From Octopus vulgaris (Eukaryota), in NCBI GenBank assembly GCA_951406725.2, contig OX597834.1, positions 4,650,001 to 4,714,000 on the forward strand: 64,000 bases of DNA, read 5' to 3'. Under the pieces are notes generated by a model. The model ran no database searches and was not told the DNA's origin. It saw nothing but the letters and a program-made list of their open reading frames with translations. A program made the translations under genes and the position numbers. Below, in pieces: positions 8,597 to 53,018 of this stretch (positions within the stretch are counted from its first letter, which is position 1; the number at the start of each line of letters is the position of its first letter).

Positions 8597-8713
8597 TTTT
8601 AATACTAATAATGCAGTACGATGAAGCATTGCTCACAAACGCACGTGGCTCTGACTTTTTGCTCATCGTTCTATTTGTCGAAACACTTGTATTCTTATTT
8701 CACTCTGTGTATG

Positions 8714-8766
<53 letters not shown>

Positions 8767-8884
8767 GTATGTGTGTGTGTGTGTATGTGTGTGTGTGTGT
8801 AAGAAATTAAAGATGGAAAATCTACACACTATATAGTTTTAATATAATTTTAAATATAATTTTTAATATATTCTATATTGTGTT

Positions 8885-8917
8885 TGTCGACCAGTTTCGC
8901 TTTCGCTAATCATGACA
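8885..8917 (-). ncRNA. Minimal type I hammerhead-like motif with A3-U8 core variant
   Basis: Minus strand TGTC-ATGATTA-GC-GAAA-GC-GAAAC-TG-GTC-GACA: helix I TGTC/GACA, 2-bp helix II with GAAA loop, GUC triplet. Confidence 0.55.
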
Positions 8918-9652
8918 TTAAAATCTATTTAAACATGGATTTTCTTAAGAAAAATACTTTTGTCCATGTATGTAGAGTTTATGAATGAATGATTCAACAA
9001 GTAGAAAAATCTAAAGGGAGGTAATTTTAGAAGTCATATCAACTTTAATGGTCATCACTAATGACATATGTTGATGTGTTAAGAGTATGGCACGTATAAA
9101 CCAATATTTCTAGGTGAGAAGAATAAATTCACCGATGTGAAAGTTGCACATCATAGAAATGTCACGGCAGTTCACTTTGAAAATATTTTTGTTCAGTGAC
9201 TGGGAGTGTATATGTATCAAATGATTGAGTAAAAATCACCATATCCCAAGAAATGATATTAAAAGTTTATCAAAGCCTGTTACCGAATCATGGATACCAT
9301 AACTGGCTTTGTGAACGCACCATTTAACTCTCTAAAATTATAGGTTCCAAGATATTAAAACCACCTAAATTTATATCAGCCAAATCCTGATTATACAAGT
9401 CAGTTCACACCTTATTTGAGGTTACCGTAGTCAATGTAATCGACTTGACCCTTTCCTGAAAATTGCTGGGCTTGTGCCCAGATTTAAAGCCATTATTCTA
9501 TTAGTGTCTAATTTATTAGCGACAACTTTACTAGCAACTAGAATGCAGTGTTAATGCAGTTTCGAAGTTGGCGAATTCGTGCTCAGTATTGCAATGTATG
9601 AACACGTGATTATACACAAAAAAATATATCTGATCTGCATGTTATCAAGCAT

Positions 9653-10070
9653 TTGTCTTATGAAGAAAGGCTGAAGACGCTCGACCTTTATTCTCTAGAA
9701 AAACGACGACGCCGTGCTGATCTCATTCTCGCTCACAACATCATAAGCGGAAAGTGTAACCTCTCGAAAGAGCTGTTCTTCACTCCTGCTCCAGAGCGTC
9801 GGATGCGGGGTCACTCCGAAAAGCTCTATCTGCGACGATTTCATCTCAATCGAAGGAGAGGGGCTTTCTCCATCCGGGTTGCGGATCCGTAGAATAAGCT
9901 GCCGGACGAGATAGTGAAGATGCCGACGACTACTCGGTTCAAAGTCTCTCTTGATCAGAAATGGCCTGAACTCTTTACATGAACACCCTCCCTGTACATA
10001 ACTCCATGTCCCCCTACATGGCCTTGCTTTATGCTTATTGAGCCAAAAAATTAACTTAACTTAACTTAAT
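9653..10070 (+). mobile_element. 5'-truncated CR1-like LINE 3' end (ORF2 C-terminus, 3'UTR, TTAAC tail)
   Basis: SYEERLKTLDLYSLEKRRRRADLI...RGHSEKL...FSIRVADP matches the CR1/L2-type ORF2 C-terminus; premature stop at the W codon. Confidence 0.85.
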
Positions 10071-17783: not shown

Positions 17784-20170
17784 CTGTATTTGCCGGTGCA
17801 TTGGACGTACCTTCACATGAGATGCATCTCTATTTTGCAGGGATATTTTGCTGGAAAAAACAATTTTAGTATGTTCCATCATACACTTATTGAAAGAAAT
17901 TTTAAACTGGTCTTTGTAGGGGAAATTGTATGATTCTGTGGATGAAATACAATATTGCGACAGTATACTGGAATAAAGTATGAAATCATATGTAGCTTTA
18001 CACTCACCTTTAAAAGAAACTAAATTAAATTTGCCATAGCAAAAAAAAAAAAAAAAATTCTGGTGCATCAAACAAAAAGCAAATATACTGATTAAAAACT
18101 GGTGCAAACCAATCAGCTAAGTACAATAAATGAGATGAATTTTATGGATAGTTGCAGTTATTCGTTCTCGCTGTTGCCATCCATATTATCGATACTCTCT
18201 TCATCAGTGGAATTCTCTGCAATAGAATCTGGGTCATCAATATCTTCTAACAATAAATCGTCCTCAGTACCATCAAGGGCATTATTAATGCCACATTTTT
18301 TAAAACATGATTTCACAACTATTTCTTCTTTTACAGCGTTCCATGAACCTTTTGCCCATCCACACACCTCTATAATAATAGGCCTCTTCTTACTTCCTGA
18401 TAGTGTCACTTAAAAATCTGAAGACTGCATCTACTCCCCCACCCCGCAGGAATCTTTTAAATGGTTTACTGCTTGAAACATCTAAATGCTGTAACTGCCT
18501 TGTTAGGCCTCCTGGAATTACAACTATCTGGGTCTTCACTCCTTTAGGTTTCCTCTTAACAAGCTTAGTTCTATGAGCCCGAAACCGATCCCAAACAAAT
18601 AAGGCAAGTTTCTTTAATAGCCCACCAGGACGCCAGGACCACATTTTATCCAGCCACATTTCCATTCCTCTCTCATCTATCCAACCTTTGGGGAGAGTTT
18701 GAGTATAAATGCCATTGGGTATCCTGTCTTTAAGCAATCTTTCTTTTAAAAATTAACTAAGGTGACAGTTTTGTACCATCAGCGCAGCATGCTGATACAA
18801 CTGTGTAGTGTGTATTTTCATGGCCACATACTTTAACAGCCACAGTTTTATCACCCTTGAGTTCTACCGTCTTCTTTGGTGGCACATCAAATGCCAAAGT
18901 GACGTCGTCAATATTTGCTATCTGTGGAAGTTCGAAATTAGCTTCTTTCCTTGCATTAATGAGCTACCTGTGAAACTTAAGTATTTGTTCTTCATATTCA
19001 GGGGTATTTTTTGTGCTTTTCTTCTCCTAGCCCTCATACAGAGATTATTTCTCTCTTCATAAATCTGGAATACCATGGTGATGACCCTTTAAAATCATCG
19101 ATATCTCTGTCCATTGCTATAAGCTTTGAATGGTACATATTCATTAGAGTGGATACTGAAAAACCCGATCTTCTTTAGTCAAAAATCCATGTTTTTCATT
19201 ATTTTAGTTCATGCCACTTTACAACACACCTGCGGAGGCAGTCTTTGCTACGTTTAGCAGCTTTCAACTGCACTTCTTGTATCCTCCAAGTCCTTAGCAT
19301 TTTCTCGGTTGTTGGTGGACCAAAATACCGAGCAGCTGCCTATTACCAGGGTCTTTTGCGTATTCTACATCTAGTTTAAATTTAAAGTTATAACGGTGCA
19401 TTTTTTTCTGTTTTCCATGGGTTTGGACTTTGTACAAAATTTACCGTAAATAAATTTATGGAAAACCGTACCCCAACTCTGGCCTGCTCTTAGATCAGCC
19501 CCATAGTTTATATTTCGGGTAAGAGAATTGCTATACGGAATGTGAAACTCGTATTCCTGGATGTGATGTTTTGTGTTACCGCGACAGGCTAGAATGTGGA
19601 AAATAAGAGATAAAAAGGCTAAAAGAGTCAAACATAAATGAATGACCAAGAAAGGAACACAACAGAAAGGGGGCGCTGTTGTAAAAGCAAAGCCTCCGAC
19701 GCATCATCTGATCTGATTATTGCAAATGGCTGCCGGCGGATGGAAGTTTACTAATATTCTTTTGAAGTTTCTAGCAGCATTTTTCATTCAGATAATGAAC
19801 AAATCTATCCTAAAGCTAAACCAGTCATTAGATAATGTAATACATATATCAGGAGTGGGTTATATATGCTGGGTTATGTAACTACCGACGTATCATAAGC
19901 AGTATTTCACAAGACTGTGATAACAGTCTGTGATAATTCGGCTCGTGTTCTATATTTTATTATTAGTAGCACAATTTACAGTAATATTTTGGTTTGTTTT
20001 AATTATTAGCAACAATGTTTATACCCAGGGAACTTACCCAGTATGCTCGTCCGACTCTCTAGCCTAGGGCGCTCGGTCTCACATCTGTAATACGGCCGCA
20101 TTAGATGCAGGGCAATTTTTTGATACATTCAAAAATTAGAAAAGCGGGTCCAATCTGCCGGCAAATACGG
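17784..20170 (-). mobile_element. Pogo/Tigger-family DNA transposon with TIRs
   Basis: Left CTGTATTTGCCGGTGCATTGGAC versus reverse complement of right end CCGTATTTGCCGGCAGATTGGAC; internal DDE transposase remnant. Confidence 0.8.
18158..19370 (-). pseudogene. Frameshifted pogo-type (DDE_1) transposase
   Basis: KGWIDE..WLDKMW..RPGGLLKKLALFVWDRFRAH..VIPGGLT.QLQHLDVS..KPFK and KSCFKKCGI.NALDGTEDD in adjacent frames; upstream limit approximate. Confidence 0.82.
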
Positions 20171-20304: not shown

Positions 20305-21157
20305 TGAGAGGGTACCCAAAAGTAATGCTCTCTGTTGCATAAGCCCGTTGTAGTTCAGGCTTCCACAGCTAGAAGCCACTTGATGCAACCCTCAGGCATC
20401 AGTACGTGGTGCCTCTATGTGTTGTAGTGCTTCTCCGCTGTTCGTCGATTTTTGCGATGGCTTAAACGAAGGAACAGCCTGCTTCCGTGAAATTCTGTTT
20501 GCAGCTGGGGAAAGCGGTCACCGAAACAGTTGTCATGCTTCAAACAGATTACAAAGAAGCTCCCATGAACAAAATCGGCGCTTCTGAGTGGTTTCCAGGC
20601 TTTGGGAACGATCATTTATCGCTTGAAGACCAACCTCGTTCAGGACGACCGTCGACCCCCCGAACGAGTGAAAACATCATTAAGATTCATGAACTAATCT
20701 TCAAGGATCGTCACCGAAAAATTGATGAACTTGCTGACATGACAGGTGTGTCCTTGAGCTCCTGCCAAGGAATTTCGTGTGAGGAATTGCGAATGAAAAG
20801 AGTTGTAGCAAAATTTGTGCCTCGCTTGCTCACAGAAGATAAAAAGCAGTTACAACTGTATGCATATCGTGAACTGAAAGAACAGTTGGAAGTTGATCCG
20901 GACCTTTCGTCTAAGGTCATCACTGGTGATGGAAATTTGTGCTACGGAATTTGCAGATGTGGAAGAGGTGAAGAAAAACACAACGGAGATGTTAAAAGGC
21001 AAGAGTTCCAGGACTGCTTGGAATTGTGGAAAACGCGCCGGGACAGATGTATTGCTTCAAATTGCGGATATTTTGACGGCGATGACAGTGTAAACATGGA
21101 AATCTAAGGGAATAAAATGATGTTGCAAAATTTCGGTTTCTGTTGGGCCCACCCTCG
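20305..21157 (+). mobile_element. Internally deleted mariner-like element
   Basis: TA-flanked degenerate TIRs (TGAGAGGGTACCCAAAA versus reverse complement CGAGGGTGGGCCCAACA); transposase fragment inside. Confidence 0.8.
20487..21107 (+). pseudogene. Mariner transposase fragment (HTH domains, first catalytic D motif, most of the catalytic domain deleted)
   Basis: KFCLQLGK..TET; LEDQPRSGRPST; AKFVPRLLT (WVPxxL-like); KVITGD; then jumps to W..R..RCI...G.YF.GD. Confidence 0.85.
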
Positions 21158-21725: not shown

Positions 21726-22034
21726 TATATATATATATATATATATATTTCAACAATTGAGGGTAAAATTAATTAATTATTAATCAATTTCACCAAGTGT
21801 TCAGTATGCAAAGGGACCATTTAAGGCGAATTCAAATTATTACATTATATAAAAGGGCTTAGTAAAATAAATTACTTTGCCGCATACTGAACTCATTAGA
21901 AATAGCAGCTAAAAAACTTTTTTAAAGCTATTTCTAATACTTAAAGAAAATCTCTCTCATATATAGTGTTTGCTTAATTCAACTCACAAAAGTTTGGGGG
22001 TAAGGACATCAACAAATCAAATGCTAAGGTTATT

Positions 22035-22086
22035 TGAGAACGTACGTTTCAAGATTAGTCAAAACAACACTTCTATCATCAGCTCA
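22035..22086 (-). ncRNA. Minimal type I hammerhead motif, unit 1
   Basis: Reverse complement of 23396-23447. Confidence 0.7.
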
Positions 22087-22579
22087 GAAACTCCTTGGTT
22101 TGGATTTGGAAACACTGAAAGTAAGAACATACCCTTTCGAAGATCTGCTCGCAACTAACAGTGCCAACGAACCCAAATAAGCAAGCGAAGAATTTCTGTT
22201 CTCCCCTTTCCACCAGCGTGGGTTAAAATCATCAAACACTATGCTTATTTCGGTAAAATCCGAAGCATTAATTAGAGGGAGATTAATTATAATTTCAACA
22301 ATTGAGGGTAAAATTAATTAATTATTAATCAATTTCACCAAGTGTTCAGTATGCAAAGGGACCATTTAAGGCGAATTCAAATTATTACATTATATAAAAG
22401 GGCTTAGTAAAATAAATTACTTTGCCGCATACTGAACTCATTAGAAATAGCAGCTAAAAAACTTTTTTAAAGCTATTTCTAATACTTAAAGAAAATCTCT
22501 CTCATATATAGTGTTTGCTTAATTCAACTCACAAAAGTTTGGGGGTAAGGACATCAACAAATCAAATGCTAAGGTTATT

Positions 22580-22631
22580 TGAGAACGTACGTTTCAAGAT
22601 TAGTCAAAACAACACTTCTATCATCAGCTCA
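22580..22631 (-). ncRNA. Minimal type I hammerhead motif, unit 2
   Basis: Reverse complement of 23396-23447. Confidence 0.7.
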
Positions 22632-23395
22632 GAAACTCCTTGGTTTGGATTTGGAAACACTGAAAGTAAGAACATACCCTTTCGAAGATCTGCTCGCAAC
22701 TAACAGTGCCAACGAACCCAAATAAGCAAGCGAAGAATTTCTGTTCTCCCCTTTCCACCAGCGTGGGTTAAAATCATCAAACACTATGCTTATTTCGGTA
22801 AAATCCGAAGCATTAATTAGAGGGAGATTAATTATAATTTCAACAATTGAGGGTAAAATTAATTAATTATTAATCAATTTCACCAAGTGTTCAGTATGCA
22901 AAGGGACCATTTAAGGCGAATTCAAATTATTACATTATATAAAAGGGCTTAGTAAAATAAATTACTTTGCCGCATACTGAACTCATTAGAAATAGCAGCT
23001 AAAAAACTTTTTTAAAGCTATTTCTAATACTTAAAGAAAATCTCTCTCATATATAGTGTTTGCTTAATTCAACTCACAAATGTAATATATAATGTAATAA
23101 TTTGAATTCGCCTTAAATGGTCCCTTTGCATACTGAACACTTGGTGAAATTGATTAATAATTAATTAATTTTACCCTCAATTGTTGAAATTATAATTAAT
23201 CTCCCTCTAATTAATGCTTCGGATTTTACCGAAATAAGCATAGTGTTTGATGATTTTAACCCACGCTGGTGGAAAGGGGAGAACAGAAATTCTTCGCTTG
23301 CTTATTTGGGTTCGTTGGCACTGTTAGTTGCGAGCAGATCTTCGAAAGGGTATGTTCTTACTTTCAGTGTTTCCAAATCCAAACCAAGGAGTTTC

Positions 23396-32914: not shown

Positions 32915-33290
32915 TCATAAATGAGGGCAAACGAAAAAAATTCCAATGCCAAATATGCCGAAAAATTGGACATATTGTCCATTAACCATATAATGTTTTC
33001 ATAATACGCACGCTACTCGAAAAAAGGTCGACAGAAATTTCTAAAAAAATCCATTATTACCATATCGGACCGATTTCAGAGTTAGCTATTAAGAGCCCTC
33101 TCTTCGTCAGTGATACATGTGGTAAGAGAAATATATGAGATACTTACTCATACCCACGGAAGAAGCAAATACTAAGTCGCGGGCACAACTAAGTACCCCA
33201 AATACATCCAAAATAGAAATGCTGGCCATTGATAAAATTTTTTTCGAGAAAATATTTTTTTTCGAAAAGAATTTTATCCTCACATTTGAT
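32911..33290 (-). mobile_element. TA-embedded ~380-bp hammerhead-bearing element
   Basis: Bounded by (TA)n; hammerhead at 33062-33116. Confidence 0.65.
33062..33116 (-). ncRNA. Minimal type I hammerhead motif
   Basis: Minus GTATCA-CTGACGA-AGAG..CTCT-GAAAT-CG-GTC-CGATAT; helix II AGAG/CTCT; one change from the ACCGGT palindrome; one mismatch at the base of helix I. Confidence 0.72.
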
Positions 33291-50748: not shown

Positions 50749-52086
50749 TTGAGTTGGTGCCCTCTAGTATATATATATATATATAATTGAAGAAGGGTAG
50801 AAATTGGCCTAGCATATATATAGGAGTGGGGGTGTTTGTATGTGGGCTTTTGTGTGTGAAATGTTAGAAATCAAGATATATACGCATGGTAAAATATATT
50901 GAAAATATAGGAGAAATTCAAAATGTTATGCTCGAAAAGTAATGTTTATGTATTAAATCGGTTTCGCGCTTTAAAATGTTTGCATGGTGTTGGAAGTAAC
51001 GATCTTATAATTTTATATCATAATTCGTTGTTGGTGATCTTGTTTCTTGTGGAATATTCTTCTCATTTTTAAAAAAAAATTGTGACAATTATGAAGTTAA
51101 TTAAAATTAATGAAACGTAAATAAAATTAATTCGCATTAATTAAATATCACTGTAATTATAATTAACTATTTGTGCATATTTAAGCGCGGCCGATATTCT
51201 TTTAGTAAATGCTATCTGCTAAATTTCATGAGACACGATCCAGATATGCTGAATCGACTTCCAAAACCACGATCAATCAAAAGGCACTGCCTTACGACTA
51301 TAGAAAAGAATCGATAAAATTCTGATTGTATAATTATGCGAAATAATTACACGAGGGAATTTAAAAAAAAACATGGATTTAAATGTTGTCTGCAAAATAA
51401 CTATTTCATTTCTAATGTCAACTATTACAGAAAATAATTTGGAACTGAAATTGGTAGGATGTTAGCTCCTTGATATGGAAGTTTTGTAGGATATTTGAAG
51501 ACTGCAATGTATCAAGAATTGAAAGAGAATAAGGAGAACTTTCCATCAATATACAAAAGGGAGCTGATTAAGTTTTCTAAATGGTTGATGTTGAAATGAA
51601 ATCTTAGAGAAATTAAATGAATGCAAAATTCTGCTAAATGTAATAATAACGTAATTTAAATGAGAGTTGAACACAAGATTAAGACAAACATATTTTATCG
51701 CCCTGGAAGAAGTATCTACAATTTACATCGTGTCACTAAAAAACGCAAAAACAAATATTTCTTATAATTTAGCGCAAAGGATATACACGATGGCATATAA
51801 GTACCTGCGAGTTAAGACAGAGAGTATGTATTGATCTTCTCAAGACAATGGAAGTGCTGTTTTTAAAACAACAAAAACAAAATATCTATAAAAATGATGC
51901 CAACGAAAAAGGTACCAAATTCTATGCAACAAGAGCAACAGAAAAGTCAAATTGTGTGAGCGACGCAGTTATGCAATTTTCTTACCGAATTCGAAGGTTT
52001 TCAATTTTAGTTGAAACAAGAACAAAACTTCAAAATTACCAAGATATTACCTTTGCAATATGTAACGTAGTTTACGAAAAGCAGCT

Positions 52087-52513: not shown

Positions 52514-53018
52514 TATCCTATGAATCACCAATTAAATTTTAATATATTTACTATATACCAATGTAATGACGGAGCACCTGAACAACAGCGGAGAAACAAT
52601 GAAACTGCACTCGTTGAAAAATTTCGATCGCACTTAAACACATTTAATTAAATTTGATTACCTTTATATCTATTGCTACTATTAATAGTAGAAAATTAAT
52701 AATCTATTTATTAGCTCCGCTGTTGCTGCCAATAACATTCTTTTATTACCTCCTCTGCTAGCATCAGCCTCTATTACGAAATTAAAACATCATCAACAAC
52801 GACAGATTGTTTTGAAATGATGAAATTATAACAACATTAATTACAAAATCATAATTCCAGAAAGAGAAACGGACTGATTATGTAAGCATTATATTTCATA
52901 AACTAATATTTTTATCATGAAGTCGTCAGTGCGTTTTTGTTTCTACTTACATTATACATACACACACGTACATACTCACACACACATATATACACATATA
53001 TATGTGTATGTATGTATA

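Follow-up and report, generated by a model that had tools for sequence, protein, structure and literature searches.

Minimal type I hammerhead ribozymes have been described from metazoan Penelope-like retrotransposons (Cervera and De la Pena 2014; PMC4209133). Among the 56 motifs in Figure S3 of that paper, residue 3 is C in 53 and U in three, with no A3 or G3. Natural U3-A8 hammerheads are in print (Perreault et al. 2011; PMC3088659), and the same pair is reported for the Cercyon elements of Schistosoma, with about 1,300 matches (PMC4209133). The 3-8 pair is described as part of the catalytically active conformation (PMC3884650) and the catalytic part of residue 8 as its 2′-OH (PMC6155905), so that the base itself may change if the pair with residue 3 is retained. 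A Penelope hammerhead loses its cutting with either C3G or G8C alone and partly regains it with the double change; cutting in this system is reported to require the element's protein (PMC11167929). Published Penelope hammerheads are described as forming dimers by loop III pairing (PMC4209133; PMC6765202).

The motif at 8885-8917 and its host element

The window (the whole stretch of 64,000 nt of Octopus vulgaris DNA analyzed here) is repeat dense, with about 35% GC, in a genome of 2.8 Gb. Its minus strand carries a 33-nt hammerhead motif at 8917-8885 (reverse-complement reading), made up, 5′ to 3′, of TGTC, ATGATTA, GC-GAAA-GC, GAAA, CTGG, TC, and GACA. These are the helices and the core that a first-pass annotation had read from the letters, leaving the strand unstated, and we confirm them. 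The features of the motif and its surroundings are as follows:

8885..8917, minus strand: minimal type I hammerhead motif with an A3-U8 core pair (from the sequence and the family state of the copies)
8914..8917, minus strand: helix I, 5′ strand, paired with 8885-8888; subfamilies A1 and A2 differ here by a compensatory G-C to A-U replacement
8907..8913, minus strand: core strand A3 U4 G5 A6 U7 U8 A9 (A3 = 8913, N7 = 8909, U8 = 8908)
8899..8906, minus strand: helix II of 2 bp (G10.1-C11.1 and C-G) with its closing GAAA loop (from the sequence)
8895..8898, minus strand: G12 A13 A14 A15.1 (from the sequence)
8891..8894, minus strand: loop III, CTGG here and palindromic CCGG in the family (change at 8893)
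8888..8890, minus strand: U16.1 (8890) and C17 (8889); hammerhead numbering, applied by analogy, puts the predicted site of cutting between 8889 and 8888
8885..8888, minus strand: helix I, 3′ strand (from the sequence; compensatory change between subfamilies)
about 8802..9026, minus strand: 3′ end of a 5′-truncated Penelope-like element (3′ UTR/pLTR fragment) with no ORF left (from BLAST and longer copies)
8710..8801, no strand: (TA)n/(TG)n microsatellite adjoining the 3′ end of the element (same junction in most family loci)

In its core and helices, the motif has the features of a minimal Penelope hammerhead except literal C3 and G8 (CUGANGA), whose places are taken by A3 and U8, the class being defined here by the pair rather than by its letters: We find U4 G5 A6 N7 A9, G12 A13 A14, A15.1-U16.1, and H17, helices I and II with G10.1-C11.1, and a Watson-Crick-capable 3-8 pair. 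A strict descriptor open to every Watson-Crick pair at 3-8 gives one match in the window and none in 300 third-order Markov simulations of it, which rules out a chance motif. A covariance-model search up to E 10 returned no Rfam hammerhead match to the motif, and no hammerhead is among the matches listed for the whole window (150 of 195). A second motif, a C3-G8 candidate at 33,110, likewise has no Rfam match; the A3-U8 pair is therefore not the sole cause of the miss. This hammerhead-like motif (33059-33114, minus strand) combines the canonical C3-G8 with a closed helix III of 9 nt and a long helix II, and the hammerhead is not its lowest-energy fold.

BLAST matches to family loci begin at 8800-8805 and end at 9026 (about 225 nt), and the fragment 8802-9026 is 66%-89% identical to other copies at many loci. 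The motif sits about 85 nt from the 3′ end of the element. Longer copies carry RT and GIY-YIG on the same strand, upstream of the motif and co-oriented with it, at a distance of about 160-330 nt. Pfam gave only one weak RT match on six short broken fragments, and the longer ORFs settled both domains: In copy L091, one ORF has RVT_1 (E 1.1e-6; 28.9 bits, slightly below the cut-off of 29.6), followed at the C terminus by GIY-YIG (E 1.6e-6). L091 and L073 have a CX4CXXC linker between RT and endonuclease, of the CX2-5CXXC type common to Neptune and Nematis. An inverted second motif is present in nine of 42 loci (two of the nine being the same pair). The (TA)n/(TG)n tract at 8710-8801 is likely the insertion target, and a microsatellite bias is reported for Neptune elements (PMC8557442). 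By the features described in that paper, we assign the host as an EN+ Penelope-like element, putatively of the Neptune/Nematis type. A non-LTR retrozyme was rejected, since the window has a single copy and no tandem unit and the family has an ORF. No host gene is evident among the 26 frames of at least 120 aa in the window.

Other repeats lie elsewhere in the window. Weak RT and endonuclease-end remnants at 51213-51563 and 52523-52639 belong to another Penelope-like copy. At 21804-23133, one motif occurs three times on the minus strand at 545-bp spacing, plus an inverted fourth copy, and at 1232-2153 there are five tandem copies (94% identity) of a 184-bp unit that we take to resemble an abundant SINE-like repeat. 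The stretches 9638-10069, 18390-18752, and 20466-21107 hold between them a LINE-like 3′ fragment, also present in L031 and L092, and two frames that resemble pogo and mariner transposases.

The 3-8 pair within and between families

At protein (RT)-anchored loci, the motif is found in 25 of 30 (26 copies), with A3 in all 26 copies and U8 in 25. A family pattern in which positions 3, 7, and 8 could take any letter gave 151 matches, and among the 100 of these that were listed, 90 are A-U, six G·U, two C·U, two A·A, and none C-G. These counts rule out private decay from CTGATGA, and the annotation's view of A3-U8 as more than a private mutation of this copy holds at the level of the family. The family also turns up in contigs of DNA-sized runs filed under three organism labels (864, 411, and 673 contigs), where positions 3 and 8 are not among the 40 variant rows listed (68 further rows exist). 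Contigs from runs only presumed to be RNA cover a stretch of subfamily A2, which speaks neither for nor against expression.

The CTGG reading of loop III is right for this copy and does not extend to the family, whose loop is CCGG. Twenty-five of the 26 protein-anchored copies have C at the position changed here, and >90% of the depth in the DNA-run contigs carries CCGG; the CUGG of copy 8885-8917 is thus a minority change, and its letters make the change at 8893 one of CpG-decay type.

Between subfamilies A1 (32 copies) and A2 (19 copies), 87 of the 201 flank columns differ, a contrast inflated by the AT-rich flanks, as do four of the 33 motif columns. The four consist of N7, a loop letter, and the two members of a compensatory pair in helix I; none is catalytic. 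Within the core strand, N7 varies between subfamilies and positions 3 and 8 are constant, and the letters of the helix II loop differ among subfamilies. Conserved among the subfamilies are G5, A6, A9, G12-A14, and, at position 17, a residue other than G.

We counted 3-8 states across the genome with a pattern consisting of the core, 5-16 free bases, and CGAAACCGGT, with the reversed pattern as control. The matches partly overlap and so are not copy numbers, the pattern covers one loop III type, and copies found by it are biased toward intact motifs. U3-A8 has 5,849 matches (control 8), A3-U8 has 1,349 (control 10), G3-C8 has 135 (control 10), and C3-G8 has 117 (control 4), the canonical pair thus accounting for 117 of 7,450 Watson-Crick matches to this one pattern. 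The annotation had predicted that standard-core searches would miss the A3-U8 motif, and these numbers agree. Non-Watson-Crick matches total 688 (control 180): 159 with A3 (control 77), 104 with G3 (control 36), 110 with C3 (control 25), and 315 with U3 (control 42). The A3-nonU8 and G3-nonC8 matches listed (100 of each) are scattered singles, with no family having an unpaired A3 or G3 among them. The U-A, A-U, and G-C motifs lie behind related RT/endonuclease ORFs, and most C-G matches among those listed belong to a roughly 360-bp tandem retrozyme-like repeat.

Two families depart from Watson-Crick pairing. A young autonomous family (L341 and L342, with a 775-aa ORF) has a U3·G8 hammerhead with a slipped helix I; it makes up 60 of the U3 non-Watson-Crick matches listed (100 of 315) and likely has well over a hundred matches. 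A tandem retrozyme-like subfamily has C3·A8, with 23 among the C3 non-Watson-Crick matches listed (100 of 110). The two families look like intermediates, and since both have been amplified, a strict 3-8 pair is unnecessary for spread. The ~360-bp tandem repeat (L095-L122, L338-L340, L347, and L348) has C-G, C·A, and U-A forms, possibly a stepwise path within one family. Among the U3-A8 elements, a very young Penelope family (L073-L090) has intact 753-aa ORFs and an extra A before loop III, whereas a clean palindrome of six letters is present in L090, an older relative. Such oddities in the young U3-A8 and U3·G8 families (the extra A, the slipped helix I) count against the reading preferred below.

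A tree was built from 55 of 72 rows, 17 long-branched or redundant rows being omitted and 10 near-identical ones having been thinned earlier. The elements of this genome form one clade (100/100), in which the A-U family of 8885-8917 is sister to a young U-A family and a second A-U family is nested in the G-C clade. At least seven state changes are needed, including those of the outgroup rows and of one lone C-G copy. A single clade for all A-U rows is rejected by an AU test on 26 rows (p-AU 1.6e-6), in which the A-U group was chosen with the first tree already in view and two rows are only 26%-27% filled. A3-U8 has two or more separate origins.

The second A-U family and its G-C sister (seven copies each) are fixed for different letters at exactly positions 3 (G/A) and 8 (C/U), and their majority letter differs at four of 176 flank columns; a rough calculation puts the contrast with the flanks at about 0.0005-0.001. 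Among 91 related contigs drawn from other sources, C3-G8 in the same small architecture marks the closest relatives in which a motif was detected (L248, L250, and L254), and candidate motifs carry A-U in one contig, G-C in one, and U-A in four. The A3-U8 motif at L291:1963-2010 and the G3-C8 motif at L284:111-160 are minimal motifs beside distantly related Penelope proteins.

The covariation between families speaks for selection acting on the 3-8 pair of the master elements, rather than on copy 8885-8917, and the four Watson-Crick pairs across related families suggest that it is the pairing itself that selection keeps. The annotation's proposal of selection for activity rather than decay is therefore only partly supported: The pair covaries in families, this copy carries a loop III change that is likely inactivating, selection for activity is our reading of the pattern, and two non-Watson-Crick families have been amplified as well. 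More broadly, and tentatively, at a little under even chances, the 3-8 pair may, within a single radiation of Penelope elements, have passed through each of the four Watson-Crick states and arrived at A-U on two occasions, with families surviving that show the wobble and mismatch steps in between. The A-U and G-C forms would then be working natural ribozymes in which the identity of the pair tunes the speed of cutting, and CUGANGA searches would miss nearly all CCGG-loop hammerheads here and likewise in other animals.

Dimer folding and alternative explanations

The reading that we prefer, and consider probable, is that 8885-8917 represents a minimal type I hammerhead in a Penelope-like 3′ end, standing alone and decayed, with A3-U8 being family-wide; in intact elements a dimer likely cuts, though weakly, and copy 8885-8917 itself is likely inactive. 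Two motifs in a tandem or pLTR transcript would pair through their CCGG loops to form helix III, with A3-U8 replacing the tertiary Watson-Crick pair that positions the 2′-OH of residue 8. Cutting of the RNA would follow C17, some 85 nt short of the end of the element, probably with the aid of the element's protein, and selection on master elements would retain a 3-8 pair while its identity drifts.

Cofolding predicts a hammerhead dimer for all six distinct A1 copies with CCGG and for none of six copies with CTGG or CCAG. Beyond A1, the dimer is predicted for two of four intact A2 copies, three of five of the second A-U family, neither of two G-C copies, and neither of two U-A copies. The loop III duplex has -3.2 kcal/mol for the CUGG copy 8885-8917 versus -8.3 kcal/mol for CCGG, the homodimer of this copy is predicted to be misfolded, and the window has no second family copy as a partner. 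Copy 8885-8917 is hence likely a relic, and as a locus it is ordinary transposon debris.

The foremost alternative, itself unlikely, has the hammerhead fold, with its 3-8 pair, maintained as a site where the Penelope protein binds or is positioned or where reverse transcription starts, cutting being slow or incidental. Hammerhead mutants are reported to leave insertion in vitro unimpaired, and the Anolis element to give no reads ending at the cut (PMC11167929); minimal Penelope hammerheads are described as very low in activity (PMC4209133). The amplified U·G and C·A families fit this explanation, as does the lack of a boundary footprint at the predicted cut, copy boundaries in the loci examined showing no clustering there amid AT-rich noise. 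However, the 3-8 pair belongs to the active conformation (PMC3884650), so its covariation points to the active fold, and the residues kept across subfamilies (G5, A6, A9, G12-A14, and non-G 17) also weigh against a mere docking site.

Somewhat less likely again is that A3-U8 is a neutral pair of changes that hitchhiked in a few masters whose hammerhead was already dispensable. Copy number would then reflect only those few masters; a path from U-A or C-G to A-U takes two transversions via an unpaired state, and the C3·A8 subfamily has spread. Against neutrality stand the two separate A-U origins together with a G-C clade, the A-U and G-C motifs beside related proteins in two other contigs, the sister pair whose fixed motif differences fall exactly at 3 and 8, and the lack of an unpaired A3 or G3 family among the matches listed. 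That copy 8885-8917 is itself an active ribozyme used by the host is very improbable: The copy retains its 11 core residues and its two helices intact, but its loop III change weakens the dimer helix, its homodimer misfolds, no second family copy lies in the window, and it is 5′ truncated and 66%-89% identical to other copies.

Comparison with known systems

For the tertiary pair, which was first observed in crystals, the family covariation adds evolutionary support. Sister families differing at 3-8, two of which differ almost nowhere else, form a natural series on whether Penelope hammerheads need to cut, and this four-state series is the part worth following. Because descriptors requiring C3-G8 catch so few of the Watson-Crick matches to the pattern used here, animal hammerheads may be greatly undercounted in some genomes. 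We found no published case of a natural A3-U8 pair in a literature search that covered the field without several key hammerhead-variant studies. Any Watson-Crick 3-8 pair reportedly works in some type III hammerheads, and other hammerheads are said to prefer pyrimidine-purine, both according to Przybilski and Hammann in 2007; the set of about 150,000 variants attributed to Lunse and colleagues in 2017 may already show an A3-U8 pair.

With the EN+ elements of the Neptune/Nematis type as described in PMC8557442, the host shares a single ORF, an RT with DKG, the CX4CXXC linker, a C-terminal GIY-YIG, inverted truncated copies, and microsatellite junctions, a likeness that rests on described features rather than on named reference sequences. 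With the minimal type I Penelope hammerheads described in PMC4209133, the motif shares its site in the pLTR/3′ end, the sense strand, a short helix I, G10.1-C11.1, a palindromic loop III implying a dimer, and its occurrence mostly in solitary truncated copies. It differs from the motifs of that paper in its A3-U8 core, in a helix II of only 2 bp, and in having no extra base after A9. The natural U3-A8 hammerheads (PMC3088659; PMC4209133) are likewise a natural compensatory change at the tertiary 3-8 pair; they keep the pyrimidine-purine order, whereas the A3-U8 and G3-C8 families here reverse it to purine-pyrimidine. The C3G/G8C version of Anolis Poseidon (PMC11167929) is likewise a Penelope hammerhead with a purine at 3 and a pyrimidine at 8, and it partly keeps cutting; that G-C pair is engineered and belongs to another Penelope clade, whereas the A-U pair here is natural.
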